A stretch of DNA of 64,000 bases from Raillietiella orientalis (lineage: Eukaryota): the NCBI GenBank assembly GCA_036172245.1, contig JAYWIR010000034.1, forward strand, positions 1,984,001 to 2,048,000. Direction: 5' to 3'. Made by a program: the position numbers and the translations under genes. Every line of letters begins with the position of its first letter. Position 1 is the stretch's first letter. Below, piece after piece: positions 39,201 to 63,580 of this stretch. The notes below the pieces were generated by a model, which was given only the letters and a program-made list of their open reading frames with translations, made no database searches and had not been told where the DNA came from.

Positions 39201-42200
39201 TTAAGCTACATTAAATCCAATAAGTATACATCAGTTCATAGTGATTATTCGTCAATTCACATGTGCACTTTTCTTTATGCTAAAGAGATTCCAAATCAAA
39301 AAAAGATCGAAGAAATATATTACAAGTGCGTAGTTGTGTTTTCTAATTGACGAACGGTATGTCTTTAAAGTTTTTATAAGCAGGCATCATTTCAACCATC
39401 ACACTGAAATGACATATAAAAACATGAAAAAACTTATTTCTCATATATTTAGGATACTTGTTTAAACTGAAATGGTAACTGATTTTCCATGAACAGAAAT
39501 TTGCAAGATATAAAAAACCTGGGTAGCGAAATTGATGCAGTTATACTGAAAAGTAATGCGGATCAACTTAAAGCAAGTTCATGGCTTTGAAAGCAAGTCA
39601 TTAAAAAAAGATTTACGATTCCTATGATTATCTCTTATTTAAAAGAAAGTTAGCATATCACAAATGATACAAGAAATTAACTACATTTTCATGCAATTTT
39701 GAAAGCAAAATTAAATGGAGGTTATAGCAATCACATTAATTGCATGATCACAAAGAGAAATTTGCATCGATAGTTCAAAACATGTATGTTTTCAACACTT
39801 GCTCGCTTTCTCTATAATTTCTCTCTCTGCTTTCCCAGATCACCAAAGCAAAAATGTTCATGTTCCCAGTTTCTTCCTTAGATCAACTAGGTTGTGGAGT
39901 AGACTACTAAGATTTAATTGTAAAAATAAATTTATGTTACTATAAAGAGAATTATGAGCAAAGATTGTAGATCTATGACTTAATAGTTCCCATTAGCCTG
40001 TTAGTTCCCATTTTTCGAATTTACCTTTTCATTTGTGGAAAGCAGTTTTGCTCCAATTGCCGAATTGATCTCGCATTTATGTACTGAGTATGTGAAATTG
40101 CTCAGGATAAAGTTCTAAAAAATCTGTAAAATCTAAATCGGGAAATCTTGGTTGCATTCTTTAAATATTCGGAAAAATACTAAGCATTGTAACGAAGAAA
40201 GCATTGGGAATTTTCTGTAATTTTCGTTTACCAATAGATTTTTAAGATTTTTAACCTATAGATTGTTAATTGTTTTGTTTTAGGTCAAAAAGCAGCATAC
40301 AGATAGAACTCTAAATTTTTTGGTGAATGAGTTAAAAGTGTGTTCAAAACAAGAGGCTGAGAATCGGGTCTTTTTTGTTTCAGCAAAAGAAGTATTGCAA
40401 GCTAGATGTCTGCAGCAGAAGGGATGCTCTCCTCTCTGTAAGTTAATCAAACATTCCACAAGTAAATAGCATATGCATGTGCTTCTTTGGAGTATACTCA
40501 TCAATGGGATCATTACCCTTGTTAATTACTCAGTGCTAGTGCTAGTTCTCCACAAACAAAATCTAGGGATACCAAATGATTTAGGAGTATCAAATGTGCT
40601 GTGAATGTTGTGTACAAGTTATCCATAGGGGGCAAGAAAGCTTGCATAAAGAAATAAAATTGCGTAGGTCTTTAATTTTTGTATTAATGATGTGCACTTT
40701 AGAAATCTCAAGTGTCTATTTTCAATTATGCATACCATTAAAGAATAACATTAACAGTAAGCATCTGCCTACAAATATAATACAACAATACTTTGTGTAA
40801 TTTTTTTAGTTTGGTTTGTTGTGTTTACATTCTGTATTTGTTCAGGACCTAAAATCAAATTGCAAACAGAAAATCTTTGTGAAAGTTAGCAGCATTAATA
40901 ATTAGGGGTAGACAAGCAATACAAGGTGCTTCTTTATTATTTGTTCACGGTTCACGATTTTAAAATGTGTTCAATTGAATATTATGGATTAGAAAATTTC
41001 TTACCATGAATCAGACTGTAACATGAAAAATGCAATGGGTCTTATTTATTTTTAACGAACTGCATCATCTTTTGACCTTGTTATATCTAACAATATTTTG
41101 TTTAGTAATATCTGATATCATGAACTAAATCAGAAAATGCTTGATATATATTCTTAACTGTTGCTTATTTTTCGAGTATTAATTCGCAATAGATGCTGTG
41201 AACTTCCTTCTTTTAAGATTGCTCTTGATATCAGCACAGCTGATGCTGCAGAATTTCAATTTTTATCGATTACGTCGACTTTTTGATATTTCCATTGCAC
41301 AGTTCAGTTCATTTTAGCTTCAAACTTTGCTGTCTGATTTTATCTTTAATCAGTATGGATTCATGTTATCCTAAATCTCTTTTTTTTAATGTATTTATTA
41401 TTTGTCTTTTGTATCTTGCATTGTTACCACTAAAGGAATGAAGGTGAAACTGCCTCGTTGAAATTTTCCATGTGACTTTCTTATTCATGTTCAAATGCAA
41501 GCATTTATTCATCCATATATTTCTTGTTATTTGCACATTGACTCAACACTGGCTGATTAGTTTAGTTCTTTATGGTCTTCTTTGGAAATTGTATAGCTTT
41601 TCGAATTATTGATTCAGAAAAAATCCAGGCATGCATATGAAATAAATCGTTTCATTGTTCCAAGGATCTCGTCTTATTGTTATCTGTGGTTTACAGAATT
41701 CTTCACTTATTGTGGCATAATTTGTTTGTATGATTTTAATTACTTAGTCTGCATACATTGACTATAAATCAGCAAATGGAGGATTGTACTAAAATTTCTT
41801 ATAAATTCCCATGAGGATTTTACTATTTACTTCATAAGCATGTATGCCTGGCTTTTGATTGCAATGCATCAGTGTCTTAATAATATTTTTTTTTATATAT
41901 CATGTAATGTATTTTATTTAAATCATTTCTTATTATCCTGGTCGTTTGGTTCTGATTTAAAATTTAGCCATAAATCTCGATTCTGTTATAGTTATTCATC
42001 CCCCATGTCAAAAGTAAGATGGTTTTCATTCCCAAACAACCCAGGCTTCTTAGAATTTGTTTGTACTTGATTGCAGTTACAATTTGCACATTATCTTAAC
42101 ACTTCAACTTTCTCAAGTACAGTGCATTCAAGACTCAGTCCCATGTTACCATTAAGAGCTTAATGAATTTATTGAAGCTGAAATCTGAGCTTTTTATTAA

Positions 42201-45200
42201 TTTGGAAACTTCGCAAATTAATAGAAGTAAATAGGAAAACCAACATTTACAACAGGTGATTTGTCGAAAAAAAATAAAGTCTAATATTTTGTACAGATTT
42301 CCTGGTGTAAGCATTACTGCAAAAGGTGAGACTGCCAGGATTTCGTTTTTAATCTGTGCATATAGCAGTAATTGCTGTGACCATCCTTCTGTATCACAAA
42401 TACACCCTAAGAGTTACTAAAGCTTCATGTAGGAAGCAAAAAAATACTCAAAGGAGTTATGCTCATTTTTTATCTGTTGAAAAATTATATGGTAGCGTTT
42501 TACAAACACGAGCTAGTTTATTTATTCTAGAAGTACTTGACAAACTATTATAGAGATATTCAGTTTTTAATGTGTTAATGAGAAAATATCTGTTGTGTGA
42601 ATTTGTCAACATGCACCATGTATTACAGATGCAAAATAGAACAGCTTAGGAGCAAGTATTTTTTAGTAATTAAAATATATTTTTTAGCTGGAGCTTTAGC
42701 TGAAGGTTTTCAAAAAAGATACTTTGAATTCCAAGACTTTGAGCTTAAATTTGAAGAATGCATTTCAAAGTCTGCAGTGAAAACTAAATTTGAACAGCAT
42801 ACAATTGGAGGCAAACTCATTTGCAGGTATGTTTTCAAAATACAGTTTGCATTTCACTTTGAATGAGAAATTTCTTATAAGAAAAATTTTTATAATGTGG
42901 AAGAGAAGTGCTTAAGTAGTAAATTTTTTTGTATGATAACTCATAGAATTTAATTTTTCATGTTTTTTCTTTCTTTCCTTGATTTTTCATTTGATTTATC
43001 ATTTACTCGTCGCGAATTTTTGATTGCCCGTTAATTTTTCTGTCTGTTTATTTGATGAACTACTACTGAGATGAATTAACATAATGACTAGTTGACATTT
43101 GTTGATCAAATAACATCCTGTGTTGAGAATGAGTTGAGATGTATGGTTGAAGTGAAAGCATTATCTCCTTTGCTATATTAATTTTACAGACAAAATTTGA
43201 GCCTTATTCTGGTTTGTTTTATTCACGTATCCGTTTTTAGCAGTTGAAATTTTAAAATGTTGGAGACTTAAAATCCTATCTGTAATTAAGCAAATTTTGT
43301 TTTAATATATTGGATGCTTGAATTCGTGAACTTACAGCAGTAAATATGTCGAATGTAGCCCGTATTTTTTCTTTCGAAATAATTTAGTTTTTACTAAGTT
43401 TTCGAGGACAGTGCTTTTAAAACAAATCATAAACTGTAAAGTTCAGTTTAACTGTCATAACTTGATATGCCTGATGTTTCCCTCATGCTAAACCAAAGTT
43501 TGGTTTGGAGAGATTATTTCTTGTTTGTAAATCTATAGGAATATTCTGTATTTTTGTAAAAATGAAGAAAAGATGTTAAACAAAAGGCAGCAACTGAATA
43601 AATAGTTTAGTTTTGAGCAACACTTTAATAAACTTACCCGAAGATGCTGGTTTCATTTCTTTTAATCAAGTATAGTCTATCTTTAGTACGCAAAAACTAG
43701 ATCTTTGTGATTTTGATTGTATACTTTATTTGATGTAGAGTAGTAAACTGCTTGAAATTGTTCTAATTTTTTCAGTCATCTTTTATTGCATCTTGCAGTT
43801 TTGTCATTGTATGCATGTTAAAAGGTTGACCTGAGTCCTATTTGGTGGTCATACATGATATTCTATCTTAATGCATTCTTCTTTGAAATATTTCTTGATC
43901 TTTAATCAAAAAATATGAACTTGATCATTAAATCGAAATGCAATCTTCTAGTGAAATAAAAGCTCTTTTAAGTACCGTAACTGAAACTGTTCAGAAACAT
44001 ATTGCAAACAGCCTTACCGAAAAAAAGCAATATGAAGATACAAAACAAGAAACTGAAAGTCAGCTTATGGTTCTTACAAATGAAATGAAAGGGAAAATAT
44101 GTGAAATGGTTGAAGATGTTGAGCAAAAGGTAAAATCTCAAAAAGATTTAGAAATGCATAGTTGCTTTGAAAGGTGTCAAATGCTCTCAATGAAGAAATT
44201 AGACGATTATCAGTTCTTGTAGATGAATTCAACACTAATTTTAGCTCTGATCCATATGTATTGTCTGTATATAAACGAGAAATCCATCAGTATGTGGAAA
44301 AAGGACTAGGGAACAATCTTCGTGCAAAACTTTCAGCTGCTTTAGCCTTGAGTATTGATGCAGCACAAAAGGAGATGACAGGTACTTCTGTTCCTTAATT
44401 CATTATAGACGATAATGTTAATATCATGGTAAATGTTTTTTCTTGCAAAATGATTTTACACCCTTCCCTGAAGCTTTTCTTGTGTCACATTGTTTCAACA
44501 AACTTCTACAGCTTGTTAAAAGTTGGAGCATTTGCACTCATAAAGCAAAATGAATACAATGTAACCTTGTGACCTCTCTGTAAACTATAAATGAATTATG
44601 GGAATTTTTTTCCTGTATATTTGTCTTGTGCTCTTCATCACCTTGGATAGCATGTTTTGTAATGTGTGACAGACAGCCTATTAGAAATCTGGACTTTTTT
44701 TTTTGTTGTTTAAAATTAGACAAGTTAAAACCATGGGCGACTTTTCAATGTCAATGTCATGTTGTCCTGATTCAATGTCATGTTGGCAGAAGTACTCTCG
44801 AAAAAAAAAAATCTTTAGTACCTGCAAAGTTTGCTTGCCTCTGAGAAAGTAGACTTTAACTTTTATGTTGGCACCACAGTGCTGCCCAAATCTGAAAGTT
44901 GTTACAGAATTTCTAGTTTATTTCTTCCATAGAAACATATAATTAAAAACTTTTCCTTGTAGAAGTACTTAGTAGGCTTTTTAAATATGTTAATAAGTAC
45001 CAGTCAAGTTCAAAGTCATTGCAAAATAATTGCAAAATATAATAGATTTGCAGACCAGCTTGTTTCATTTGTATTATCAAATAAATACTTTACGTTCCCT
45101 TAAATAATAAAGTATTTATAATGTAGTTTCTGATACAACATCTATATGTTTTAGAATGACTTAATTTTAGCAGAAGAATGTAAGGCATTGATCGCAGTTG

Positions 45201-46135
45201 CGAAAGTTTTTCCCGAAAGACTTATTAATGTTGGTTTGCAATTTCAGCAAAGGTGATTAAACTTCTTCCAGAAGAACGCCATCGAATCCCCCTGAGCATT
45301 ATGCCTCATAAGGAACCTTTTGAAATATTTTATCGTATCAATTGCGAAAACTTATGTGCTGATTTCCAAGAGGATATAGAATTTCGGTTTTCATTTGGAA
45401 TTTTAAATTTAATCTCTCGTATCCTAAAGAGAAAGCGGTTTCCTAAATTTGCCTTGATGGATAACTCGAATCCTCCGATAAACAGGACTCCATATCCAGT
45501 TGTTAATTCTCACATGGACGTATCTTCTAATGAGCCTGAAAATTGGTCATTATTGTCAAAAGCAGCAGTGGCAACAGTTTCATCACAAGGAACTGTAGGG
45601 AGCATTCTCCTTACAGGAATGGTGATCACAAGTGTATATATTTAGCATTCAAAATTACAAGTCTTTTTTAGCTCCTCAAAACTGTTGGTTGGAGATTTCT
45701 TGCAGCCACAGCAGGTGCATATGGTCTTTTATACCTGTATGAATGGCTTACTTGGACAAACAAGGCCAAAGAACGTGCATTTAAACAACAATATGTTAAT
45801 CATGCAACCAGAAAATTACGTTTAATTGTTGATTTGACTTCCACGAATTGTAGTCATCAAGTACAACAGTAAGCCATCATTAACATTTGTTTTATTGCTC
45901 TTATACCTTTTTTTTTTTTTTCTCCATCAGACAATTATCTAGTACTTTCGCACGCCTTTGCCATCTAGTTGATGAGACCACACACGAGATGAATGAAGCA
46001 TCATTAGTTTTAGAGAAAGAAATTCGGTTTTTAGAAGAGACGTTGGTGGCTATGAAAAGATTGCACAATCAAGCTTTCTATCTGCATAGCAAATTGCAGG
46101 TTTTTGAACAACAGTTCCTCAAGACTTCACTTTAA
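33276..46135 (+). CDS. Marf: Mitofusin (transmembrane GTPase Marf/fzo), 12 coding exons
   Basis: Exons 33276-33486, 34911-35037, 35083-35245, 37053-37283, 37336-37443, 40284-40437, 42688-42826, 43952-44129, 44174-44381, 45248-45621, 45672-45868 and 45931-46135. Motifs are [62 protein letters not shown] and [10 protein letters not shown]. Confidence 0.96.
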
Positions 46136-47389: not shown

Positions 47390-47791
47390 CAGTCTATGCC
47401 TGCCGTGGACATCTCTTGAAGGGACTGTGGATTTCTGTTGAAGCTGAGGCCAAAGGGGTAAAAAGTTGAGACCACGAGATTATATTGAGCAGGCTGCAGG
47501 AGATTGTGGATGAAAGAAAAGAAAAAAGAGCCAACCAGTAAGAGGGGAAACTGCTGGGTGCGTATTCAAAAATCCAAAGGACTACCCAGCAGGGAAACTG
47601 GTTCCGGCTGTCGAGGATTAGGTAATAGTGGAGTCAAAATTTGTAAGAAACGCTGTAACTTTCTGCTGAGTTGCAATAAGGCAGATGCATCTGACCTGGG
47701 ATGCCTTGGCAACAGGCTAAAAGATGCAGTAAAGGATAAATTTAACGTGGAGCTTGAATGGGAAATAAGGGTCTCAGGTAGAAGCTATTAG
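47390..47791 (+). pseudogene. murB: UDP-N-acetylenolpyruvoylglucosamine reductase, 3' fragment (Wolbachia-like)
   Basis: Across frames it reads TAGCVFKNPKG and KKRCNFLL...ASDL...KDAVKDKFNVELEWEIRV, the MurB C-terminus. It is 5'-truncated at the left junction. Confidence 0.8.
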
Positions 47792-48049
47792 GCGGTTTTT
47801 TACAGCTGCTGCATTTTCCATATAACAACCGTTGGAAACGGAAAAAAAGATGCTTACTTGACAAGTTTTGGCAGTCTTGTTATCAATAGTAAAGTTAAAG
47901 CCTATCAAAAGCCGCAGGGAATGCAGGGAAGGTATGTCTTTTTTAGGGCGTTGCACTTGATTTCTGGGATATCTTTGCTATATTCTTTCCAAAGCTTTTC
48001 TATCGTTACTCCGCCTAATATAACGCCAACACTTTAAAGTAAGTGTAAA

Positions 48050-48335
48050 TAACTAGCTATCACAGACTTCTTTTGCCTTTTTTTCTGCTTGGTAAACGTA
48101 AACGCTTGCAGTATAGGTTAGTTGCAAATTAAAAGCAGCTGTTGTCGAGAATTTTAGAATTAAAAAGCATCGACATTTGAGGTAAATAGTAAATAGCCAA
48201 CCACCACGGGGCTTTTTCTGCCTTTCTTTCTACTTTGTAAATTTCTTAATATCTATAGCTAAAGTAACGCCAACAACTGTGATCCCGCTAAGTGTTAGCG
48301 GCTGAGATACTCCAAGTATCCTGCGGCGGAAATTG
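48050..48335. repeat. Wolbachia-type intergenic repeats
   Basis: Two related units, CTTCTTTTGCCTTTTTTTCTGCTTGGTAAA (~48067) and CTTTTTCTGCCTTTCTTTCTACTTTGTAAA (~48212), plus the palindromic CCGCTAAGTGTTAGCGG (48285-48301). These resemble dispersed Wolbachia repeats, recognised from memory. Confidence 0.55.
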
Positions 48336-48420
48336 GTCATGCAAGAGATCTAATGTGAATCCCTTGGGACCAATACTAGAGGCCAAGAGTTTTTAAACTG
48401 AACTCTATGCAGTGCTAAAC

Positions 48421-48960
48421 ATGATAGAAAACCTAAGCGGAAGAGTCGACGAGGTTCACAGTGATCATACAATCTTGAATGTAAATGATGTTGGCTATAT
48501 AGTGTGCCTTTCAGCCAAATGCATGTTCCATTAGAGGTAGAACAAAATTACTTATTGAAACTCACGCAAACAGCAGAGAAAACTTTACTCAGCTACTTGG
48601 TTTCATAAGCAGAGAAGAGCAGCAGTCCTTCCGAGTGCCTGTCAAAGTACTCGGCGTCAATCATAAAACTGCAAGGTCAATTTTGAGTAAATTAACCCCA
48701 GAGCAGTTGTTTTTGGCAATTACGAATGAATTTGAATTAACACTCAAAATGAGCGGGCTAGGTCGAAAACTCATTAATCGAATTATAAAGGAAGTGAGTG
48801 GCAAAGTGAGTAAATTGGAATAACAATTTCCATCCAATTAAAGAGGACGCTGTTTCAGCTTTGATCAACCTCGAATATGAAAAAATGCAAGCTTACGATA
48901 CAATAAAAACATGTCAGGAGTGGACACTAAGGAGCACTTAAGGAACTTCCAACATTATGA
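48421..48960 (+). pseudogene. ruvA: Holliday junction branch migration protein RuvA
   Basis: [60 protein letters not shown] and DAVSALINL. It is frameshifted, and its stop overlaps the ruvB ATG (ATGA). Confidence 0.88.
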
Positions 48961-49880
48961 AATCAATATCATGTAGGTAAAGAATATGCCGAAGATGCGC
49001 GTAATGTAAACATCAGACCTGAACAACTTGATGATGATTTTGTCGGTTCAAAAAGATTTAATAGAAAATTTTAAAGTGTTTTAAATGCCGCAGAGACGAG
49101 AACTGAAGCTTTGGGTCATTGTTTTGCTACACGGTCCTCCAGGGCTTGGCAAAACAACTTTAGCACAAATTGTCTCCAAGGAGTTAAGGGTTAGCTTTCG
49201 CGCTACTTCTGGTCTTTGGCTCGACAAAGCTGGAGATTTAACCGCAGTGCCTACCGCTTAAATACAAAGGATGTCTTCTTTACCGACGAAATCCGTAGAT
49301 TAAATCGCGCATTGAAGAAGTCTTGTATACCGCCATGGAAGACTTTTGCCTAGATATATTAGTGAGTGAAGGCCCATCTACTCGCACTCTAAGGATAGAT
49401 TTGCACCTTGAGTATTCTTTTTCTGAGGAACTGGTTGATGATACTGCAAAGAGAGGCGCAACAGCCGTTCTTTCTGCTGAAGTCGAAGATGCTGTGCAGG
49501 AAATTGCATGCCGTGCGCGTGGCACTCCAAGAATTGCTTCGGGATTACTCAGAAGAATAAGAGATTTTGTTGAAGCGGAAGATGACAAAAAAAAAATTAC
49601 CAATGAAACTGCTGACTGCGCTATCAAAATTGGGCATAGATAAAATGGGATTTAACAATGGATTAGATATGGATTATCTAAGATTTTTATTCAATACTGC
49701 AGGACCTGTTGCAATTAACAACATACCTATTGCGCTGTCTGAGGATGCTGGCAAAGTTGAAGAAACAGTAGAAACTCAACTCAAATTTAATCAAAATTAG
49801 TTTTGTAAAGCGCACACCAAGAGGACGTATTAAAACACAATCAAAGGAAGGAGTATTTGAACCTTCGATATTAAATAGCT
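48957..49880 (+). pseudogene. ruvB: Holliday junction helicase RuvB
   Basis: RPEQLDD, Walker [38 protein letters not shown] and VKRTPRGR. It has stops, frameshifts and a central deletion. Confidence 0.92.
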
Positions 49881-49966
49881 TTCCTGCCATAATTAGTTAA
49901 CTAATTGATATAATGCCGTATACTGGTGTTATGTGCTAGGAATAATGAAGGTAAATAAGTATAGGA

Positions 49967-50820
49967 TGAATAGCACCGAAAAGCACCTTTAATTGCAACT
50001 TCCACTAATCAAGACAGCCCTTCCGATAATAAAACACCTCTGAGCACTCAAAACGTACCTGAACCAACACTGGATAAGGAAGTACATAAATACATCACTC
50101 TTAATGATGAAGAAGCATGGAAAAGATAGATTCTTTGCGTTGCAGAACGACTTTTCTGCCAATATCACGAGCTCAAAACCTTTTGCTCGGGGTAAAAATA
50201 AATGTAATGGATATCACGGACAAAGTGGCCGAACAAATTAAAGAGTTTTCTAAAAGTATAGAAAATAGTGCTATAAAGTCTATAAGGCTCAAAGAAACCG
50301 AGAAAATAATGTTTACCCTCCCGTGAGGGTTGTGCTGGATGATAGCGAAAAAGAAGTAAATGTAACTAAGCTTCTGAGGGGTAATATATGTAAAAAGTAC
50401 AATATAAAACAATTACATTTTCTCACCCTAAACCAAAACGAGGAGCATGTTGGGAGGAGCGTAATAGTGATTTTTTACCACACGCAAGGCTATATTAATG
50501 ATAATGGAGAAAGAATTTATGAGGTGATCAAGGGGTCATACGAAACGATTCTAAAGTGGTATGTTGAAAGAAAAGAATGTAAAATTAAAATTCTCATTAG
50601 TGATGATGGTTCCATAAAACTTGTTGAAGGCAATGATGTAACTGAAGAACAGTTACTTGTGCATAAAGAGGTAAAAGTAAGCAACAAATGAGAAGCAAAG
50701 TTTTTACATGACGCATTAGCACCTCAATCACTAGAATTACAACAAAAAAACTCTGAAGTAGTCAACGTTTTGCAAGTCTTCAACATGTGTGACAGATGTC
50801 AATAAACCACAACACCAAGC
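49967..50820 (+). pseudogene. Wolbachia-like hypothetical protein, fragmented
   Basis: Consecutive AT-rich ORF pieces (50117-50326 and 50323-50691) between ruvB and mpg. I recognised no family. Confidence 0.5.
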
Positions 50821-50902
50821 TCCTGCTGCTCGAGCCAAGCAGGCGAAGTGGTGAAATTTCAGCATAAATTGCTTGCAAATGTAAGTCACTTATAATTCTA
50901 TG

Positions 50903-51400
50903 ATGAACACAATACTACCAAAAAAATTCTTGGAGCAGCTGACCTTAACTGTAGCTGGGGAGTTATTGGGAAAGATCCTCAAATTTTCTGACTTGTGTAA
51001 TAATAACTGAAGTTGAAGCCTATATAGGAATGGATGATCCAGCTGGTCATGTAGCATGAAGCTATACTAATCAAATCTCAGTAATGTTTGGTATGCCAGG
51101 ATTTTCATACATGGAGTGGAATATATGGAATGTATTAATGTTTAAAGTAACAGAAGCAGAAGGGTTTCCACCAGCAGTGTTAATAAGGGGATTGAAGCTC
51201 ATGGAACCACCTGAGGAAAATTTAGGTGGACCAGGAATTTTATGCAAAAGGCTGAATATTACCAAAGAACATAACAAACAAGACCTCACTATAAGCCACG
51301 AATTTTTTTTACAAATCTCACCTCGAACCAGATTATGTTTGCATGCCAAGAATTGGAATCAGTAAAGGCAAAGAGAAATTTTGACAATTTAAGATTCTTT
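50903..51400 (+). pseudogene. mpg: 3-methyladenine DNA glycosylase
   Basis: LTVAGELLGK, IITEVEAYIGMDDPA, GFPPAVLIRG, GPGILCKRLNIT and PRIGISK. It has stops and deletions. Confidence 0.85.
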
Positions 51401-52191
51401 AAATCAAGCTTCTCAATGTCATTACATGCTGGAATAGAGAGTAATGTAAGAGGTCTATTAGACTCATACCCTTGGTAATGCTTTCATACTTTCTTAAAGA
51501 ATGATTATCTGGGTATCCATTGATAGTTCTGATGCTGGAATACTCAACAGAAGCTTGATCTTTAAAAGCAAGTTGTCTCAATTTCTCTCTGAGTTTTGCT
51601 TCTTTTTCTTGTGCTAAAAGGCAAGATTTTATCAATGATTTTATAACCGAATTTATGGCCTTTGTATCTCAGAATGTGCTAGAACATTAATGATATTTTC
51701 TTTTACCACACAATTATACATACTTTTCTTGCTCTTTAACAATTCTATGAACATTCTGCTATTTTGTGAATTCAACTCCAAATTCTTTTCACTTATAGGA
51801 GTTATCATGAAGGTGTTCTTATTTACTCTAATGTTAAACTGTGGAAAGCCCTGAAAAAGTGGAATGGCTACATCCTTAGATTCAAGTGGATTATCGTATG
51901 CAGAAAAAAGAGCACATGCTATAATGTTGGTTGGCATCTCCATTCCATGCTAGCTCAAGTAATGTAATACATTTTCAACATCATATGTAAAGCCTCACTT
52001 TTCAGTAAATCAACAACCTCTATGCCATCATGTTGTTTATACTCTATTCTCACCTCCTCTGTAAAAAGTGTTTTTGCTACTATATGCTTATCAACTACCA
52101 TAAAAATTTTGATGAAATTCCCTAAATCTTGTTTGTCGACTAGTTCACTCCTAATTAAGGCCTTATCAACAATTGAAACATTTTGTGTCAT
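51399..52191 (-). pseudogene. Wolbachia-like hypothetical protein, split into three ORFs
   Basis: Abutting minus-strand ORFs 51955-52191, 51653-51943 and 51399-51635 inside the insertion. Confidence 0.5.
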
Positions 52192-52319
52192 TTTTGCTCA
52201 CTAAAAAAACTCACTAAGTGAATTGTACTTTTAATCCGTTAAAATCTGCTTAAAGTGAGCATGCCAGCTCCTGATTGTGCATTATATAACAGTAAAAGTA
52301 AGCAAAATCACATAAAATC

Positions 52320-52665
52320 GTCGTGTGATGCTACACGGTCTTAATATTCATCATTACTGCCTGTGTAAGTTGTTACATCAGCGTTGTTATAATTGTTACT
52401 TAGCATATCATCTAACTTCCTTCTTTTTCGAGATCCATCAGCTGCTCCCCCCCCCTCCCAATATGCTTGTCATTGAGATTTGTGAAACTGTTCTGACATT
52501 CTATTCAGATTTCACCTTGTTAAACAAATCGGGATTTGCATCTGCATCGATTGCTTCATATTTTACACCTTTTTGCATCTTTGCAGTGACAGTACCACCT
52601 TGTGTATATTATAACTTTTCTTTGGGTGCATTTCATGATTTATCTCCGCAGTATAAAACATAGTT
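52320..52665 (-). pseudogene. grxC: Glutaredoxin 3-like
   Basis: The minus strand reads HCKDAK...GVKYEAID...NVRTVSQI..NDKHIGG, glutaredoxin motifs with a degraded CxxC. It is divergent from ribF. Confidence 0.65.
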
Positions 52666-52699
52666 ATTCAATATAAGAAATATATATGAAACCCCAAAC

Positions 52700-53310
52700 T
52701 GTATGAGTCTATTTACGATTGTGAGCAGGAGATAGAAAATAATGTAGCGTTAACGTTCAGAGATTTTGATGGAGTTCATTTAGGATATGACTTTGCAGTT
52801 TCTACTCTAAAGAAAGTGGGGCAGGAAAAAGGATTACCCTCTGCAATTTTAAGTTTTGAGCCCCACCTGTTGACTGTCTTATTCAACAGAAACAACTTTC
52901 GATTGATAAACCAAGAACGAAAAAAGGGAATGATTAGCAGCTATAGCATAGATTACTTATATATTATCAATTTCAATGGAGGTTTTCCCTAAATCAGAGG
53001 CAATGACCTTATTAGTAGGGTTTTGTGTGGATAGATATAGCACTAAACATATAATTGTTGGAGAAAATTGCACTTTTGGTCATAAATGATTAGGTAATAC
53101 ATCAACTAGATACAAGGAAATATTCAGAAACATATGGATATTCTTTAACTAAGTTGGAACCATTAGTAATCAATGGAGAAATTTGCTCCTCTTCTTCAAC
53201 CAGTTTTCACAGAAGGGCAAAATAGAGATTGTCAGTAAGTTGCTTGGCAGGCCTTATCAAATCTATGGTATTGTCACAAAAGGTGCCCATCAAAGAAAGG
53301 TACATACCAT
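52700..53310 (+). pseudogene. ribF: Riboflavin kinase/FAD synthetase, N-terminal part only
   Basis: ALTF..FDGVHLG, LSFEPH, IIVGENCTFGH, ICSSS and KLLGRPYQIYGIVTKG. It breaks off at the start of the kinase domain. Confidence 0.85.
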
Positions 53311-54235
53311 TTAATTGAAAATGAAAGCTTTTTACGCAGATGATTTCATCACTATATATCAAATTTACATTTAAGTTAGTGAAGGCCAAGTTTTTATCCA
53401 AGTGATTCTCTGTATTTAATACGTATATGTTTCCATCTACAACTTCATCCTTTCCATTAATTCTCACTGAAAACTTTCCTTTGAATCCTATTTCTTTGTG
53501 CAAATTGTAGCTTTTAACTAAATTAGAAAACTCGTTAAATAGTTCAAATTTTAGGTTATAAAATGTCCCACACAAATTTAACAAAGTATTGGGGTTCCTT
53601 ATTGTAATGGATACATCATATAGAAACCCTTTACCTTCTTTTGTATGGACACGGATATCCAAAGCATTGAAATCTTCCCCCTTTCCTACATACACTTTAT
53701 CAATGCGAAATTCACCTTCCGTGCTTTTATTGGAGGCAATGTTAGTAATTTCAATCTTTGAACCCGCATTTGAGTCAAAAAAAAATTACCTTACTGCTTT
53801 CAAAAAAGTTTTCGAATTAAAAGTAGCTGTTGTGAAGTCACCAAAGTGTCTCCTTCATATTTGTATATGAAGTTCAACCAGGAAGAAATCTTTGTCCTGG
53901 TTGATATACACACACAGCATCAGCCGAGACTTGAGAGAAATTTGCACTGGTTTTTAGCAAGGAACTGAACTTAAAATGCACAAAAACGTTGGGAACTTTT
54001 ACATTAAAACCAGGATTTATTATTTTTAAATCTGTAGTGACTAGATACGGATCTGTGTCATCTTTTTGTCAACTAACCGAAGTACTCTCCATATTGACAT
54101 TTCAGTTGTCAAACTTTCTCGATATCTTATCCTTTAGGTAAAAATTGATATAGCTAATACTAACTTCTAAGGGACTCTTATCTTTGAAAAAGATAAAAAC
54201 GCAGAGCGTAAATAATGAAACTATAGAAAATGATA
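53300..54235 (-). pseudogene. Wolbachia-like hypothetical/membrane protein, 3'-truncated
   Basis: ORF 53207-53695 and upstream pieces follow rnhA on the same strand and collide with the truncated ribF. Confidence 0.45.
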
Positions 54236-54246
54236 TTGTGATTTTT

Positions 54247-54680
54247 TTAAGCATCGATTATTGCTTTTCTTGTTAAATTATCTGCCTCCTCATTATGTTT
54301 ATCCCCATTATGAGCTTTAACCCACCTCCAATTAATCTTGTGTTGTGAAGCAATGTCATTTAATTCTTTCCACAACTCCATATTTTTTACTGATTTTTTA
54401 CCACTTGTCTTCCAATCATTATTTTCCACTTTTTTATCCACTCTGTTATATCATATTTGACACAGAGACAATTCGTATATAAATGAACATTACAGGAAAA
54501 TTTTAACATCTTCAGTCCATTGATCACTACTGTTAACTCCATTTTATTGTTTGCAATGTTGTCTTCCTTACCATAAACATCCTTTTTATGATTTGGAAAT
54601 AGTATAATTGCCGCCCATCCTCCTATTCCAGGACTACCAAGGCACGTTCCATCCGTGGATATTGTCACTTCCTTTTTACT
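54247..54680 (-). pseudogene. rnhA: Ribonuclease HI
   Basis: TDGTCLGSPGIGGWAA, NNKMEL, ELWKELN and WRWVKAHNGDKHNEEADNL, split by a frameshift (ORFs 54387-54668 and 54247-54441). Confidence 0.92.
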
Positions 54681-54879
54681 CAGCTTTAACTATATAAATT
54701 AATAATTAACTATTATAAATTAATAGTTGCTTTTATGAAAGCACAATTTCAATGAGACACATGGATACGCAGGCCTTTAATCTGTACCTTTAAGTTTTAT
54801 TATAGAAACAAAGAAATGCTCAACAAGGAACACTATTAGAAGGAAAAATAAAAAATGGTTTTTATGTATCTGCCGTTCT

Positions 54880-55456
54880 TTCATTGCTAAAACAAATCAG
54901 TAGAACAAAAAATAATACTAGTAAACAGAAAAAATAAATAAGAAATTGAATAAGAAAACATTTTTTTCAGTGAGCTATGATTCTTAAGCCTTATAACAAA
55001 CATAGCATACCAAATAAAACGCGCCCACCAAGGATTGCCAGACTTAGGTAAAATAGAGCCTTTTTCAAAAATAGTGCTGAAAGGAAGCTAGTTAACACCA
55101 ACAACACACTATAAATTAATATGTGTTTTCTTGTGTTCTCTGGGTCGTAAACCACATTGAACATTGGAATCGACGTTTTTGCACAGTCTTCGGACTTATT
55201 TAAGTATAGAGACCAAAATTGCGTTGGAGTCCACATAAAAATTATTAGGAATAGAATAAAACTTTTCCCAACTTACAGAGTTAGTCACAACTGGAGCAAC
55301 AGATATAAGAGATAGTACGAGAAAAGGATGAATACTACCTGGTGCAGCAACCATTCCTGCAATCGCAGTGAATACTAAAAAGTACATTATCCTTGGCAGC
55401 GAACGCCAAAAATCTAGTCTTGTTGATTCAACATTTAACAAAGCACTTGTGCACAT
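54880..55456 (-). pseudogene. cyoE: Protoheme IX farnesyltransferase with a large internal deletion
   Basis: [15 protein letters not shown] and WTPTQFWSL...IPMFNVV. The central aspartate-rich region is missing. It lies immediately downstream of coxA. Confidence 0.82.
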
Positions 55457-55457
55457 T

Positions 55458-56971
55458 CTATTTTACCACTGGTGGTTTTTCGAAAGTATGCAAAGGTTGT
55501 GGTGAAGATATTGTTCCTTCCAAGGTATCACTTCCCCAAGGGTTATTTCCAGTTTTCTTGACCCATTTGAAGAGATGGATAACTATAAATACAAAAAGCA
55601 TAATTGAAATGAAGGACATGTTTGAACCAATTAAGGATACATAATTCCAAGGAATGAAAGCATTCGGATAGTCGGGTATGCGCCTTGGCATGTCAGTCAG
55701 TCCCAGGAAATCCTGAGGCAAAAAGTAATATTGGTGCTAATAAAAGTAAGCCAAAAGTGTATTTTTCCTAGGCAGTCATTGTATTGTTTACCCGACATTT
55801 TATCTACCCAATAATGAAAACCAACGAAGGCTCCAAATATTGCAACAAGTGACATGACTTAGTGAAAGTGAGCAACAACATAGTAGGTGTCGTGCAAAAG
55901 CTTATCTATTCCACCTTGAGACAGAATTATCCCGGTTATGCCACCGCCAACAAATATGAAAATAAAACCTAATGCAAATAGCATAGGAGTTTTAAGCTCA
56001 ATCGCTCCGCAACACGCAGTTGCAATCCAGCTAAAGACGTTGACACCAGTTATAACACCGACGAAGATTGTGCTGTTGCTAAAAAAATATGGCAGCATCT
56101 TCACTAAGTTCAACAGTAGACATATGATGAGCCCAAAACATGAAGCCAATTACTGCTATCTTTGTATAAACCATTCCCATGTAGGGAAAAAATATCGGCG
56201 TATGAGATAAAGTTGACACGACTTGGCTTGCGATGCCAAACGCAGGAAAAATGATCATGTAAACTTCTGGATGACCACAAAATCAAAATTTCTCAAAGCA
56301 TATCAGATGTTGCCAAAAGGTTTAAAATTGGTAAGATCTTGCAAAACACAGGGTCACCTCCCCACCCACCCCGGCAGGATCAAAGAAGGAAGTACCAATG
56401 TTGAGATCAGTGAGCAGCATAGTTATTTCTACCGGCGAGCACCGTGAAGCGACAATTAACATAAACGACGTTAATAAGAGAGACCAAACAAGTAGTGGCA
56501 TCTTAGTGACATGCACACATGTTGAATATAGTAACTATGAAGTTGATTGCTCCCACAGTCGATGACATAGCAGCAATATGGAGTGCAAGTATGGCGAGGT
56601 CAACTCCTGCACTTGGATGAGACATAATTTGCGACAAAGGTGAGTATAAAGTCGAGGACCTTCGCCAGCAGATACGGGGAATGCCACATCTGGTGCACCA
56701 ATCGTGAGAGGTACAAACCAATTGGCAAACCTTTCCATTAGGGGTGGCATTATCATAAAAAAAAACACCATTATTACTGCATGCCCTGTAACCATGACGT
56801 TAAATAATTGATAGTTATTGTTAAGTATATTAATGTGCATTAGTTGAGTGCGAATAACCACTGATAACAATCCACCAATAATTCCAGCTAATATGGAGAA
56901 GATATTGTTCCTGTGTCTTTATGATTAGTAGAAAATAGCCAACGTCTTATACCTTTTGGTACATTGCTCAT
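55458..56971 (-). pseudogene. coxA: Cytochrome c oxidase subunit I (bacterial, Wolbachia-like)
   Basis: [64 protein letters not shown] and MPRRIPDYP. Trp is encoded by TGG. There are many indels. Confidence 0.93.
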
Positions 56972-56984
56972 ATCTGTACTCCAA

Positions 56985-57780
56985 ATTTAAGCTCACTCAT
57001 TTCTTTTATTTTCGATCCACTTATTAAAATCTTTACTTACCGCCTCAACAAAAATTATCATACACCCATGACCTTGACCACGCAATTCGTAGTATTGACC
57101 ATAATTAATACGAGGCTTTTTAACTTTAAAACATTGCTTCATCGAGCCTATTTGGTACTGCATCAATTTTTACACAGAAGGCTGGTATTCCCCAGCTGTG
57201 TATCACATCTCCTGCCGTTACTTGTAAACGAACGTTAGTATTGATAGGCAAAACAAACAGAGAATAGCTTCGAATCTCCTTCGCCACAGTCATCTCTTCC
57301 TGTAATATAACTTGATGTTCTGGATATTTGATATTCACCTATTGATGTTCACCTTGATATTCTGGATATTGATAGCTCCAATACCATTGATGACCAATAG
57401 CTTTCAGTGTTACGTCAGCCTTTGGCACGTTTCCCTGTGGCTCACTTTGTTCAGCGTTTTGAAAGGCCAATGTTGTACCAATGAGGATCGTTGATGCAAC
57501 AAACCAGAAGATTTCTGAAAGGACGTTGTGACTTGTTCAACTGGTATTCTTCGTTTTGCTCTCACGAAAGCGACCTACTACTACATAAGCAAGCAGTGCC
57601 CATACGAGAAGTCTTATTGCAATAAGCCATTGCACTCATCACAGACGCAGGTGGCTCAACTACAACTTCGATTATCTCAGCTGCAGAAGGAGAACATCCA
57701 AATTGCCAAGAGGTAGGGGCAGAAGCAACTAATAATACACTTGAAGGAAACATTACCACTAACGCAAGTAACCTCACCAT
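56985..57780 (-). pseudogene. coxB: Cytochrome c oxidase subunit II (bacterial, Wolbachia-like)
   Basis: An N-terminal signal MVRLLALVVM..APTSWQFG, then GHQWYWSYQYP, TAGDVIHSWGIPAF..KIDAVP and a degraded CuA motif GQYYELRGQGHG. Confidence 0.9.
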
Positions 57781-58146
57781 ATTTGTTTGCTGTAAAACTA
57801 AGTGACATACCGTATGATAGTATATATATAAACTTACTATGCAAACAGAGAGTAGCAATGATTAATAACTTTTTAGTGTTTGATAGGTATAATAATACAA
57901 TACGAATCCAGAGGGAAAAGCATTTACATGAATCTATTTTAAATCGAAACACTATAATATTTTTCGTGGAGTATTTACTCTAATTCTATGGTGAGTTTAG
58001 TAGTGTCTGTTACTGCTAATAACCCTCTAGCCTCACACCTAAAAGCAGCAACAGGTACTGTTAAACTTTATGACGAACTTACTCATTTATGAATATAAAG
58101 ACCTGCCGCTTATTCATATAGTACACTATACTTTATTAGCTAAGTT

Positions 58147-61100
58147 TTAATGCCTGTAACCCTGTACGAACTCCTGCATAATTTTATTTTTTCTCTCTCT
58201 CCTAGTAAAGCACATTTCTTCCGAAATTTCCAGACAGTGATGGATGCATTTCTCCGCTGTTACATTCCCTGGACATATCCGGCAGGCAGGATCAGGAATC
58301 AGTTGTGTGTGCATCTCCAAACATCTTCCCCAACGGATGCGCTGTCTCATTCGCTGGCTTCCGTTTTCTAGCCCCTTTTCCACTACTTTCATTGAGGAAA
58401 ATCAAAGGAGGAAAACGTGAAAGCTTAAGGATATCGATGCTTGGCTTTCCCTATCTTTCCAAAGTGTGCCTATCTTCAAGTGAAAATTTGCAGCACAGTT
58501 TTGGCCATTTCGTTCCCATTCTATGAAGTTCCGTCTGAGAGCCATTTTTTCCCTTTTAATCATATGGTACTCAATGAAAACAGCTCAGTGAATAACGTGG
58601 TGATATTTTAGTCATTTAACACGCTCAACACTTTAAAAGCAAGAATCTGAAACTGATGCCTCAGATGCATCCGAAAAGGAAACCTTTATCAATTGACCTG
58701 TTTGACGAATGGGTCACATGTAAGAAAAGTGGTAGTCAGTGATAACGTCCAACCCTGTGAACATTCCAGATGGAACTGAGGAATGGTATCTCCATTTCAA
58801 AAACCTCATTATGATACATGTTTGAGCAGTTTTGGTCTCTGTTCGCTTTGAGTATACAAAATGCCTTCGTTTCATAGGAAAACTTTGCTTACGACGTTGA
58901 TTTTATTGAAGCGATGTGGTAAAAAGCCAACATTGAAATGCATGCACCCAAATCTCCAAAGAATGATGTGGCTTGCGCAAGGATTTTTGCTATCATCATC
59001 AAGACTAGAAGCTATCATCAGGTCTGCAGTGACCTTGTGTACTGTGCATAATTGTTCATCAGAAGCACACGATTTTGTATTCAGAAGGTGCTATCAGCAT
59101 GTGTTTAATATCTTCGCGTACCCTCACAGTTAGCCACTTGATTTGCATGCGTCACATTGGTAAACATAACAAGCCAACTAGATTCACATAACGAGGTTGT
59201 TTTACTTCTTGGACGAAAGAAGGGTTTCAGACTGCTTGCACGTGAGCACCTCATATAAGAAATTTCATCCATAGAACATGAACAAGTTACACAGAACATA
59301 AAAATCACTCTATCGAATGGATTTCCCTCCGGTCGAAAATGACACACCTTGTAGACTTTTGGCGGAACTTGGAGACATTCAGTTATTAAGAGAGCTGTAC
59401 TTATCGTCTATAAATTTATGCTTTGTATAATTTATGGACAGCAGTCCATAAATTTATTACGGTAACTATCAATAAAAAGCGATTGTAAATCTTCAGAGGA
59501 TGATAAAAGCATGTGATGCTTACCGTCAGAAATGCAATTCCTCCGTTGCTCCTCAAGTGTTCTAAAACCGAACCACATTGTCCCATGAAAAGTTTGATGA
59601 GGCTGTTTTGTGCGAAACAGCGTTTCACAAGGCCGAACGAAACTATACAGGGCGAGGGTTTTAGTTGGGATACAGATTGCTCCTCTTTTCCGTATACGTG
59701 GTACGGGCAGCGCCCGTCGTGGGATATCTTCTCTCTGTTCAACACGCCAATTCCTCAAAATTAATGTGTTAAACGTTGGTCACTTGGTGACAGGGAACCT
59801 TCGAGGGTCCCCCTAGAGATCGTTGTTAGTCCACGTTCATGCTTCCGACTTGCGCTGAAGCCAGGCTTTCATGAATAGCGTTTCTCCATCATCAGAGGGC
59901 TCACTTATGCCCTCCTTCGTCACGGAAATCTTTGCTCATGACCTGGCAGTGCATAAATGACAGATGTGAAAGCGCTCGCCCGTCTCACTGAATGCTACAT
60001 CAAGTCTAAGCACCTTCTGCCCATCCCACTTTATGATCGAGATTTTCATTCTTCGCACCTGAATCCTTTTCGGATGAGAGTGCTTGCTAGGGATTCAGAA
60101 TTCGAAACTGTTTATCTGCCCAACTCACTATGGGCTTTACGGTGCCCTAGTTTTGGTCATTTTTAATCTCCTGTCTCTCGTATTCCCGCCTTACTAACCG
60201 AAGTTTCGAAACCGAAGCAAAGCTTAAAAGTCAAATAATTTTCTTCCTGAGGTGTGTCCCTATGTATTTGGTAAGCTCTGCATTTACTCATGTTCTGAAG
60301 CTCTCGACTTGAAACACCTTACGTTTAACTGTGTTCAAGCAGAAGTTACCGTATAACCTCATTCCTTATTGCAAATGCGAGCTGAGAATGGTGCATACCG
60401 CACTGATGCGCTCGTAAAAATCCCAAATATCCCTAACTTAACATTCTGGATGGAGTATTCGTCCGAAAGCTCTGCATATGCAATGTTTGCCGAGAAAACA
60501 CTGGAAGATGTCATCTAATGTCAATGCACTTTCCGCTCCACGGCTTCCCAGAACAAGCAGGCCTTAAGTATCCTTTGTTTTTCCTTTTTCTTTCCATTGT
60601 GAGTTGACAGAAAGCAACAGCGGATCGTGGAGTCCGCTCCCAACATTCCCGGATAGCTTATTGAAATGCAGACGGTCACCCTGTAATCAGAACTGTGGTT
60701 TCCCTAAAAGATAAACTAAACAGGGAGAACCGTCCCCTCTTAATCCCCAATAAAAAAGCAAGCAGGTATTCGAGTACCTGTTTGCCTTTATTATGTCATC
60801 AACACAGAGTTCTTGCACAGACCGAACGACCAAATTGCAAAATAGGTACATCTGTTACTACTATTGCCCAACTTTCTCCACAAGGAACGGAATAGAGCTC
60901 CACCCTCCTACCGATCAGATAAATTGAGCCCCACATTTATGTGCATGCTTCTCCAGTCTTAGTAGGTCAAAACATAGGTTCTGCAAATCTCTATCAACAA
61001 TTCTATCACCCCAGTGCTCCTCAATAGCGAAATCTCGCTCATCAATGCGTATATTTACCTTGGATCTGGAACCCAATCGTCTAACGTATTCTCTTTTATA

Positions 61101-62000
61101 AACCTGAAGTCTTCGTGTAGGATGCTTCTGCGTAGGCCGGTAGTGGTCGAAAGAGTTTTATCCTTCGGAAGCTCCGCAGCATCCAGAAAAGTACTCTGCC
61201 TGGTTAGGAACGAAAACCCAGGGTGACGATTTCTAGCTTAATAAGATATGGTGTACCGGTTGAAAAACTATCAAGAGGAAAAATGTCTGGGACGGTGCCT
61301 AGAAGGAACGAAGTGTGCCATGTCTTTCCATTGTGGTCCCGGTTGCCAACTGGAAGAAGAGATCCCTTTCACTGGCGAGAAGTCCTACGTGTTGGCCAAG
61401 TCGCTCAAGAGGGTTTCTTTCAGGCTACTCCGAAGGATGTCCACCAGCACGTGAACGAGAACAGCTAGAGCCGCAGGGCTATCCTACCTTAGATCTAGAA
61501 TCACGTAGAAAAGCATATGCGACCTTCCTTCATTCAGGTTGCAGGAATCGGAAATCAGTCCAACGTCCGGAATCTTCGCCATCAAAGGAGAGGGCTCTGC
61601 CTGAGCTCTCGTTTCTCCCAGAGAAAGTTGTTGTCACGCCAACGCCGGCCACTTGGTTTGCCTCCACTGCTCTCAGATAACCACTGCCTCCTCCGGCATT
61701 CTTTCCAGCTTCCTGCAGGGGATCCAGACTTTTGCGTTTTCTCAAAACGTGCCTTCCATTACAGCAGGATCTCTGCTTTCAACCTGAGGCTGCTCCAAGA
61801 CAAGAGCAGGCCACAGACTCAGAGGAGCCATCTCCTGAAGCCATCATCTGTGGTTCCGTAACCCTACTGTGAAAGGCAAAGGGCCGGGAGCTCACGCAAG
61901 AAAAAAATCACCCGCTAGTAACGCCCATCCGGATCGCCCGACTTTGGCGCAGCTGCAGCAGCAAGAAGCCAGCAGCACTCTCTGGGAGCCTACGATGCTA
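58147..62000 (-). mobile_element. Probable very old APE-RT LINE abutting the right end of the nuwt
   Basis: A C-terminal zinc-finger-like DPACRICPGNVTAEKCIHHC (58147-58392), plus weak RT-like (NSLIKLF, EGNPFDRVIF) and APE-like (ILHEDF) remnants in the expected order. No intact YADD was found. Confidence 0.4.
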
Positions 62001-63099
62001 CCGATTGACATCCGGTTTCTGGAAGGGATAGAAGGAAAAAAATTTTTTTTCTTCTTTCAAAGTGATTCGAAGTGGTGCCGTGGGCACACCAGCACTCTGT
62101 TCCCCTTGCTGAAACAAGAGAAAAGAGAGAGAGCCAAAGACAAGCATTTCCTCTTTTATGTAGGGTCTGCTGCTACTTAGTACGCTCTCTCTTGCTTGTG
62201 ATTCTCTATGCTTTCGTCCCCTGCTCCTCAGGTGGTAACCTTTGCCTTCTCTGGGGGAATTGGCGAGGCACTCGAAGAATTCCAATCTCTCTGTCCGCCA
62301 TCTGTGGATGTTGGTGCTCTGAAAATAGAACTCCAAGTAAAAATCCCCGCAAAAGGGAATCCCCACCTGATACGTTCGAAGCAGACCACTAGACCTTCAA
62401 AGCCTCGGTGGCACGGGGCCTTCGTTGCACCGAAGTTTCCTGGCCTGAACAAATTTCCTCCTTCTACCTTGGAACGAATGCACCCTCAAATTTCGGCTTG
62501 TTGGCATCCAGGCTCTTTCTCTGACACTACCAAGTGATCTGGATCGTCAAAAATGGCAAATGTATAGCTGGACTGTCCACGGGCAGTTTTGCGTTCAGAT
62601 TTTTGCGAACTTCACAGAAACAGAAAGCTCGGCTATGGATACAGTGGACACGTGTGATAAGAGCACTCCATCAGCCGCAAACCATAACGGTGTTTTCCCT
62701 GCCTAATGGTCGATCGTACCCTGTCGAACGGTTTCAATCACGTGCGAACTTTGCATAACGGGAAGGCATCGACTACAATCCTTATTCAGGGGGAGGTAAA
62801 AAAATTTTAAAAAAAAAAAACTTCTAGATGCAGCCACTTGCATCTACAACCTGCTCGACATCCGAAAAGAAATGATGGTGATGGTAGGAAAGGAGATTTT
62901 GGAACCATTCATCTTCTGGCTTTTCTGGAGTGTGGATCCACCGCTACTGGGCTCTTCTCGGAGATCGCAGTGATTTTGAACCCCGTTTTCTAGGACCTTG
63001 TGCTGTTCCGCCTCCGCCTCTCCCTTCCGACGGAGCCGTGCAGCGCGCAGTTGCTTCCCTGCTGGTCTTATCCTCGCCGAGGAATACAATCCTCTGATA

Positions 63100-63580
63100 G
63101 AAATTTCTTCTTCGGAGGGAACCTGCAAGGGAATCGCTCCCAGTTTCCTCATCCTCTGAAGAGAACCCCCCGAAAGGACACTTCCGAAATTCAGAAGAGC
63201 GCTGCTTCTCCGAAGGGCGCGTCGCTCTTCTTTGCACTCTCTGGAGAGGTGGCTACACACCTACTCCATCAGCACGACCCAGGGGGTTCCCTACACTTGG
63301 GGGTTCCTTTGCACAACCGTAAGGGAAATTCCCCACTCCTTGATTCCTGGGAGGATTCGGAGGTCGCCGCCTAATGTCCGGGCCATCATCGGGGACATCC
63401 GGTTTGAACTGCTACCAGTGCCGTACCCGAATGAATGTAGACCAACCAGCGTCATCTTGCAGGAGGAATTCGGACCCACGACACACCCATTTTCCCCGGC
63501 GTCGATTCTTTCCGGGTGGGATTCGAACCCGCGACGCTTCGTGCCACGCGCGGAGACCGTAACCACATGGCCTCTGACTC
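63100..63580 (-). repeat. tRNA-derived SINE-like repeat, copy 3
   Basis: A-box-like AGGCCATGTGG (63573-63563) and B box GGTTCGAATCC (63529-63519). The body is homologous to copies 1 and 2, and the distal block GAAGAGAACCC..GGACACTTCC is also present at ~13228-13256. Confidence 0.7.

Follow-up and report, generated by a model that had tools for sequence, protein, structure and literature searches.

We analyzed a window of 64,000 nucleotides (positions 1,984,001–2,048,000 of contig JAYWIR010000034.1; all coordinates below are window positions) in which a block of decayed bacterial DNA lies downstream of a mitofusin gene (Marf) of the animal host. Homology to DNA of the genus Wolbachia spans positions 47395–58158 (10.8 kb), a slight shift from the limits of 47390–58145 in the original prediction, which had been made from the sequence alone. 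At both limits the homology breaks off cleanly, with unique sequence beyond each, and comparison with five of the closest genomes detected no Wolbachia-like DNA in 1–47394 or 58159–64000. This block, hereafter the insert, contains the remnants of 13 bacterial genes, each with at least one frameshifting insertion or deletion (indel), in agreement with the approximately 13 broken genes anticipated from the sequence. The genomes compared are denoted by G-numbers (G330, G284, and so on); a scan of the taxonomic order of a first matching genome covered 301 genomes, and the scan of the genus covered 60. The remnants were named by NCBIfam and Pfam searches of the intact orthologues in G330 or G284, together with Pfam searches of the window's own frames. 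The features are as follows, with identities given at the nucleotide (nt) level unless marked as amino acid (aa) identities.

33255–46132, + strand: mitofusin (Marf), approximately 11 exons; Pfam Dynamin_N and Fzo_mitofusin, with the second profile matched through its end at 46132; tblastn exons at 33255–46126.
47395–47820, + strand: piece 1, the 3′ part of murB (approximately codons 166–295, the last ~130 codons) and 28 nt downstream; 78% identity to G330:C7; Pfam MurB_C; NCBIfam murB (on the orthologue); two frameshifts and one stop.
47821–48015: stretch of approximately 200 nt between pieces; weak matches only (best E 5e-5); a motif of approximately 30 nt at about 47854–47885 is repeated in G330.
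48016–48326: copy of a short dispersed repeat, between pieces 1 and 2; dozens of matches of 69–80% across G284, G305, G330, and G334.
48412–48960, + strand: ruvA remnant, the first gene of piece 2; 85% identity; four frameshifting deletions; Pfam RuvA_N and HHH_5.
48957–49872, + strand: ruvB remnant; 88% identity; nine frameshifts and an 81 bp deletion; Pfam RuvB_N, AAA_lid_4, and RuvB_C in four different frames.
50109–50842, + strand: remnant of a 336-aa hypothetical gene; 68% identity; tblastn 45% aa identity over residues 103–315; six frameshifts and one stop.
50900–51402, + strand: DNA-3-methyladenine glycosylase (mpg) remnant; 87% identity; four frameshifts and four stops; Pfam Pur_DNA_glyco; also named by NCBIfam.
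51466–52191, − strand: remnant of a 290-aa hypothetical gene; 87.5% identity; two frameshifts and two stops.
52308–52636, − strand: glutaredoxin remnant; 75–76% identity; two frameshifts and two stops; NCBIfam GRX_bact (on the orthologue).
52710–53286, + strand: ribF, 5′ 584 nt only (approximately codons 1–194 of 310), the end of piece 2; 85% identity; three frameshifts and two stops; Pfam FAD_syn; the G330 alignment ends inside the gene.
53284–54254, − strand: yhdP-like (DUF3971) gene, 5′ 925 nt only (308 of more than 930 codons), the start of piece 3; 89% identity; one frameshift, a 48 bp insertion, and three stops; named matches belong to the Wolbachia YhdP family/DUF3971.
54247–54682, − strand: rnhA (RNase HI) remnant, the least damaged gene; 91% identity; a single 1 bp deletion; Pfam RNase_H in two frames.
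54887–55456, − strand: ctaB (heme o synthase) remnant; 312 bp internal deletion at 55293/55294, seen as a gap of approximately 313 bp against every relative.
55458–56971, − strand: coxA remnant; 90% identity; nine frameshifts, a 60 bp deletion, and two stops; Pfam COX1 in seven pieces.
56987–57780, − strand: coxB remnant; 85% identity; six frameshifts and two stops; Pfam COX2.
57781–58158, − strand: region upstream of the donor coxB (381 nt); the alignment to G330:C39 ends at position 489 of that contig, corresponding to window position 58158, the right limit of bacterial homology.

The Pfam families found on stop-to-stop frames between 47.4 and 58.2 kb (MurB_C, RuvA_N/HHH_5, RuvB_N/AAA_lid_4/RuvB_C, Pur_DNA_glyco, FAD_syn, RNase_H, UbiA, COX1, and COX2) are each scattered across several short frames, and the G330 orthologues of the remnants are single open frames. 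The 336-aa hypothetical gene matches no Pfam family. No RNA genes were detected by Rfam over the whole window or by ARAGORN. The G+C content of the insert is 0.364, compared with 0.455 in the right flank, and it has barely shifted from the donor-like value (0.36 versus 0.35 in G330). Neither terminal repeats nor a target-site duplication flank the insert, and a transposon-like insertion was rejected for this reason.

The insert is a mosaic of at least three donor pieces: the 3′ end of murB (47395–47820), a segment from ruvA to ribF (48383–53286), and a segment from the yhdP-like gene to coxB (53284–58158). The second and third pieces are 4.9 kb blocks, each collinear with G330: piece 2 with contig G330:C10, starting at 48383 and with the exception of the 336-aa hypothetical stretch, and piece 3 with contig G330:C39. 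None of these pieces adjoins another in the complete genomes G284, G305, and G277, where they lie far apart, by hundreds of kilobases in G284 and G305. Synteny is broken at 53285 in every relative, and the gene arrangement of the insert is absent from all bacterial genomes searched. Alignment with the G330 ribF and yhdP-like genes revealed that pieces 2 and 3 meet at 53284–53286 in a 3 bp microhomology, TGC, common to both donor sequences. At this joint, ribF, truncated at approximately codon 194, is fused to the yhdP-like gene, truncated at codon 308. The operon-like order that had been ascribed to the segment therefore holds within the pieces but not across them, because all relatives break synteny at 53285 and two truncated genes meet there.

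Gene content within piece 2 is variable among the relatives. The 336-aa hypothetical gene is matched in G284, G305, and G277, and no match was found at the corresponding place in G330. Specifically, the ruvB–mpg interval (49872–50861) matches this gene in the window, G284 (C1:323371–324087), G305, and G277, and comprises approximately 630 bp in G330:C10, including a copy of the dispersed repeat. This repeat, of approximately 215–290 bp, is present in dozens of copies in G284, G305, G330, and G334 and in few copies in G277; many matches were also found in G001. Its appearance is that of a miniature mobile or palindromic element specific to the clade.

Lesions were counted from multi-genome alignments, in which only indels peculiar to the window were considered. 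Of the 79 such indels in the 13 remnants, 51 shift the frame; in addition, 19 stops interrupt the reference frame. Since 21 of the 79 indels are 1 bp long and 33 are at least 4 bp long, they do not represent homopolymer sequencing noise. Neutrality was assessed in five genes of piece 3 at sites identical in 13 Wolbachia genomes (nine members of the closest clade, described below, and four outside it). At these invariant sites, the window has changed at 76 of 1020 first positions (7.5%), 93 of 1147 second positions (8.1%), and 53 of 566 third positions (9.4%; chi-square p 0.41), and the changes include eight stop gains. The even change over the three codon positions indicates neutral decay. The insert has evolved neutrally since its loss of function, and every gene is dead. 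Real and neutral decay of this kind rules out a living contaminant and is consistent with an old insertion. The earlier argument against contamination and read error is thus upheld by the frameshifts in 13 of 13 genes, by the evenness over codon positions, and by indel sizes unlike those of sequencing noise.

A functional, domesticated bacterial gene was also considered and rejected, since no remnant keeps its frame; even the best preserved, rnhA, has its 1 bp deletion. The rnhA remnant carries 20 window-only substitutions, 18 of which fall at codon positions 1 and 2. The spectrum of invariant-site changes on the window branch of piece 3 is skewed in raw counts, with 123 changes from AT to GC versus 70 in reverse. 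It is also asymmetric, with 56 T>C versus 35 A>G changes on the bacterial coding strand.

Several lines of comparison converge on the same genus as the donor. The segment 53285–58200 is matched at E ≤ 1e-150 by 59 of the 60 genus genomes. The identity is 84–87% at the nt level in nine genomes (G330, G334, G329, G328, G305, G284, G332, G319, and G277) and 72–81% in the remaining matched genus genomes. Other Rickettsiales reach approximately 66%, in coxA only. In protein searches, the rnhA fragment has 35 matches, of which the named ones are Wolbachia except for a metagenome-assembled genome (MAG) labeled "Rickettsiales bacterium" and one Candidatus Mesenet. The yhdP-like fragment has 76 matches, and all named ones are Wolbachia or "Rickettsiales bacterium" MAGs; the top matches reach 82–84%, and one of them, the top named match, comes from the Wolbachia of the louse Alcedoecus sp. 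For the coxA fragment, the matches listed, obtained through a universal motif, are mostly Rhodobacterales at approximately 60%, together with one Rickettsiales MAG at 87% aa identity. A word-based search with a 192-aa open frame of the window failed to confirm any relative, since the decayed copy has not preserved 8-residue words. WO is a temperate phage of Wolbachia. DNA of this phage (KX522565) was present in 41 of the 60 genus genomes at E ≤ 1e-100, with several copies in G284. Among control genomes, the single reported match to the Surface_Ag_2 family came from Caulobacter vibrioides rather than from a Wolbachia. Judged by these sequence comparisons, the donor genus is Wolbachia. The original prediction had named the same genus, and the nesting of the window in the genus tree, the named relatives, and the occurrence of phage WO all agree with it.

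A coxA phylogeny had been proposed as a check on the donor, and a joint tree of coxB and coxA was built. It contained 59 rows (the window, 53 genus genomes, and five outgroup Rickettsiales) and excluded G302, G309, G318, G321, G322, G324, and G329, whose matches were partial or unlisted. The window falls within the genus, in a 12-row clade with a support of 98 in the Shimodaira–Hasegawa-like approximate likelihood ratio test (SH-aLRT), and the five outgroups lie outside. In the tree of the whole of piece 3 (5062 columns), the support for the clade is 100. A grouping of the window with the nine short-branch members was not rejected for piece 3 in the approximately unbiased (AU) test (p 0.998). 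A 17-row tree of piece 3 recovers the clade at 100/100 as an unresolved radiation, with the window arising from a basal polytomy. The branch of the window in this tree measures 0.13, compared with 0.005–0.07 for the nine short-branch members and 0.22 and 0.34 for two long-branch rows. In the tree of piece 2 (1869 columns, 15 rows), the window branches as sister to the five clade members sampled (99/99), whose crown is supported at 100/98, and its branch measures 0.19. Both large pieces therefore trace to one clade. Nearly all of the divergence lies on the window's own branch (0.13–0.19 substitutions per site).

The donor clade matches supergroup F of Wolbachia, although the naming is indirect. 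This match has three grounds. A protein entry named for the Wolbachia of Mansonella ozzardi, a strain assigned to supergroup F (PMC12693587), agrees with the YhdP N-terminus of G319 without a single difference. The Alcedoecus strain, the source of the top named match, is likewise placed in supergroup F (PMC9903615). Finally, G325 and G326 show a long-branch shape like that of two sister strains placed at or near the base of F in the same source (PMC9903615). The suggestion that the transfer might come from a supergroup without reported nuclear transfers did not hold, because such transfers are already reported for F (PMC12693587).

On the left, the insert is flanked by the mitofusin gene of an arthropod-like animal. 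Searches by tblastn with four arthropod Marf proteins revealed 11 exon segments, covering for example residues 4–771 of 775. Stops occur only where the alignments run through introns, and the gene therefore looks intact. The last exon ends approximately 1.26 kb upstream of the insert, which agrees with the predicted position downstream of mitofusin. Among proteins related to one mitofusin exon, those with names are arthropod Marf proteins at 36–51% identity, and in a comparison with 28 arthropod Marf proteins the closest shares approximately 60% identity with that of the host. In a rough Marf tree, the host lies outside insects and crustaceans, beside a centipede, on a branch of 1.02; the exons were chosen by alignment to that centipede protein, so this placement serves as a lead only. 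The animal may come from an arthropod group with few sequenced members. Comparison with protein clusters to place the host yielded nothing more specific than broad eukaryote clusters. Fifteen open reading frames (ORFs) were examined in the right flank, and none of them matched a Pfam family. The prediction that the insert is joined to eukaryotic DNA with unbroken genes is thus supported on the left, by the open, spliced mitofusin exons, but not on the right, where none of these ORFs was recognised as a gene.

Considering these results together, we interpret the insert as an old nuclear Wolbachia transfer (NUWT) from the supergroup F clade or its sister into the germline genome of an arthropod-like animal, 1.26 kb downstream of mitofusin, with a probability of roughly 0.85. 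In this process, Wolbachia DNA belonging to the clade, or sister to it, would have entered the germline genome. The fragments may have been united by end joining, either upon capture in a chromosome break or through later deletions in a larger insert. The product would be without function, a fossil of an infection. The insert probably dates back some ten million years or more, a figure that hinges on the host mutation rate.

Several points weigh against this interpretation. At the invariant sites, the nonsynonymous-to-synonymous rate ratio is 0.69 rather than 1, a value biased by conditioning on invariance. No host rate underlies the age estimate. Support for the supergroup F assignment comes from two papers and from protein identity with named entries rather than from multilocus sequence typing (MLST); among the MLST genes coxA, fbpA, gatB, hcpA, and ftsZ, the insert carries coxA only. 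A single-fragment YhdP protein tree placed the window outside a group that also holds two strains of supergroup B. This fragment has little signal, and the ends of its frame are noncoding; the result accordingly illustrates the poor resolution of single genes. No eukaryotic gene could be recognised in the right flank, which was shown only to be unlike Wolbachia and richer in G+C (0.455). Moreover, the evidence for physical integration comes from one assembled contig.

The order of events at the locus is open to a different account, in which a much larger Wolbachia insertion, of tens of kilobases up to a whole genome, was later reduced by host deletions and rearrangements that brought murB, ruvA–ribF, and yhdP–coxB together. 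The internal, in-frame deletions of 312 bp in ctaB, 81 bp in ruvB, and 60 bp in coxA imply that deletion has been active since the transfer. The spacing of the three pieces by hundreds of kilobases in the complete G284 and G305 genomes is in keeping with this account, and very large Wolbachia transfers are on record (PMC4299567). However, comparison with five of the closest genomes detected no further Wolbachia-like DNA in the remaining 53 kb of the window, and the 3 bp microhomology joint is compatible with either history. We regard such a larger insertion as possible, at somewhat worse than even odds. A more specific form of the interpretation holds that the insert preserves, as a fossil, a lineage from the stem of supergroup F or one that branched early within it, perhaps in a non-pancrustacean arthropod (a myriapod or chelicerate) that may now be free of Wolbachia. 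It draws on the position of piece 2 as sister to the five sampled members and on the origin of piece 3 from the basal polytomy, and we consider it rather unlikely at present.

Two artifacts were weighed against the germline transfer. The decayed Wolbachia DNA could be real and nuclear and yet wrongly joined to the mitofusin contig by the assembly, an option that gains from the absence of a recognised gene in the right flank, whereby a known host gene anchors one side only. Such a chimera is improbable given the clean ends of homology at both limits with unique sequence on each side and the lack of any repeat common to flanks and insert that could mislead an assembler; the pseudogenised state in any case shows that the DNA is not from a living bacterium. 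Contamination would instead require a contig of a living, highly degenerate Wolbachia, or of another Anaplasmataceae symbiont, merged with host DNA. Strong genome reduction together with many pseudogenes is reported for some supergroup F strains (PMC9903615), which speaks for this idea. Nevertheless, the core respiratory and repair genes coxA, coxB, ctaB, ruvA, and ruvB each carry multiple frameshifts, change is even over codon positions at sites invariant in the genus, and two truncated genes are fused to each other in an arrangement that occurs in no bacterial genome searched. Other Rickettsiales also reach only approximately 66% identity, and contamination is very unlikely.

Transfers from Wolbachia to host genomes are described as common (PMC4299567), and NUWTs are reported in arthropods and nematodes, including Drosophila ananassae, Brugia malayi, and Glossina morsitans (PMC3849323, PMC3998919). 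Similar to the NUWTs of these three species, the insert lies beside host genes, is fragmented and rearranged relative to the donor, and contains inactivated genes. Those best-studied cases are recent and nearly identical to the resident symbiont, whereas the insert differs by at least 13% from all relatives sampled. Searches of the 60 genus genomes and of the protein collection, where the best match reaches 84% at the aa level, revealed no close living donor. Old, frameshifted Wolbachia "fossils" are described in nematodes (PMC4046930). In Dictyocaulus viviparus, NUWTs are attributable to supergroup F, and F-derived NUWTs are reported from nearly all of 22 filarial genomes studied (PMC12693587). 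The insert resembles these "palaeosymbiosis" fossils of D. viviparus and of Wolbachia-free filarial nematodes as old, frameshifted fragments that record an earlier infection. In contrast to them, the host here has an arthropod-type Marf, and a single locus is visible. The arthropod-type Marf with multi-kilobase introns points away from a nematode host.

The structure of the insert is also reminiscent of transfers from organelles. In nuclear copies of mitochondrial and plastid DNA (numts and nupts), non-adjacent donor fragments are joined with short microhomology and without target-site duplications, and then decay neutrally. The insert shares the microhomology-joined non-adjacent fragments, the lack of a target-site duplication, and the neutral decay, whereas its donor would be a facultative intracellular bacterium rather than an organelle. 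Wolbachia transfers derived from supergroups B and F have reportedly also been observed in a grasshopper.

If the transfer is correctly identified, the open-frame fragments of the 13 remnants represent host DNA of bacterial origin and should be treated neither as genes nor as contamination to be trimmed. The insert would record the presence of a supergroup F-like Wolbachia in the germline of this animal at one time. Once the host is compared with its relatives, the locus could help to date the association, because all sampled Wolbachia relatives are at least 13% away and the divergence lies on the window's own neutral branch. Such transfers are a frequent and well-documented phenomenon, in supergroup F as well; the interest of this case lies in the age of the insert, its near-basal placement in the F clade, and the possibly unusual host. 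Should the stem-F origin prove true, and should the host's neutral rate or an orthologous empty site in related species allow the insert to be dated, it would set a minimum age, of a kind rarely available, for the radiation of the one supergroup that arthropods and nematodes have in common. Such an origin would also extend the "palaeosymbiosis" records to a new host group.

Additional observations concern the compared genomes and the rest of the window. Segments of G310 are 99–100% identical to the phage WO of a Nasonia vitripennis strain (KX522565), and its RnhA, as well as its YhdP N-terminus over 94 aligned residues, shows complete identity to proteins named for a planthopper Wolbachia. This combination hints at a very recent phage exchange between strains of different hosts. 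A second host gene of the window is represented by an exon of a PRC1/MAP65/ASE1 microtubule-associated protein at 6564–7025 on the − strand (Pfam E 4.5e-31). Positions 11400–21800 form a G+C-rich block (50–63%) amid sequence of 30–38%, with long overlapping open frames on both strands and a weak reverse-transcriptase match at 20333–20752 (− strand); the block probably consists of one or more decayed retroelements. At 61000–64000, the G+C content rises to 47–55%, and overlapping open frames without a Pfam family occur on both strands at approximately 63.2–63.8 kb; this region may be another host repeat or transposon remnant.

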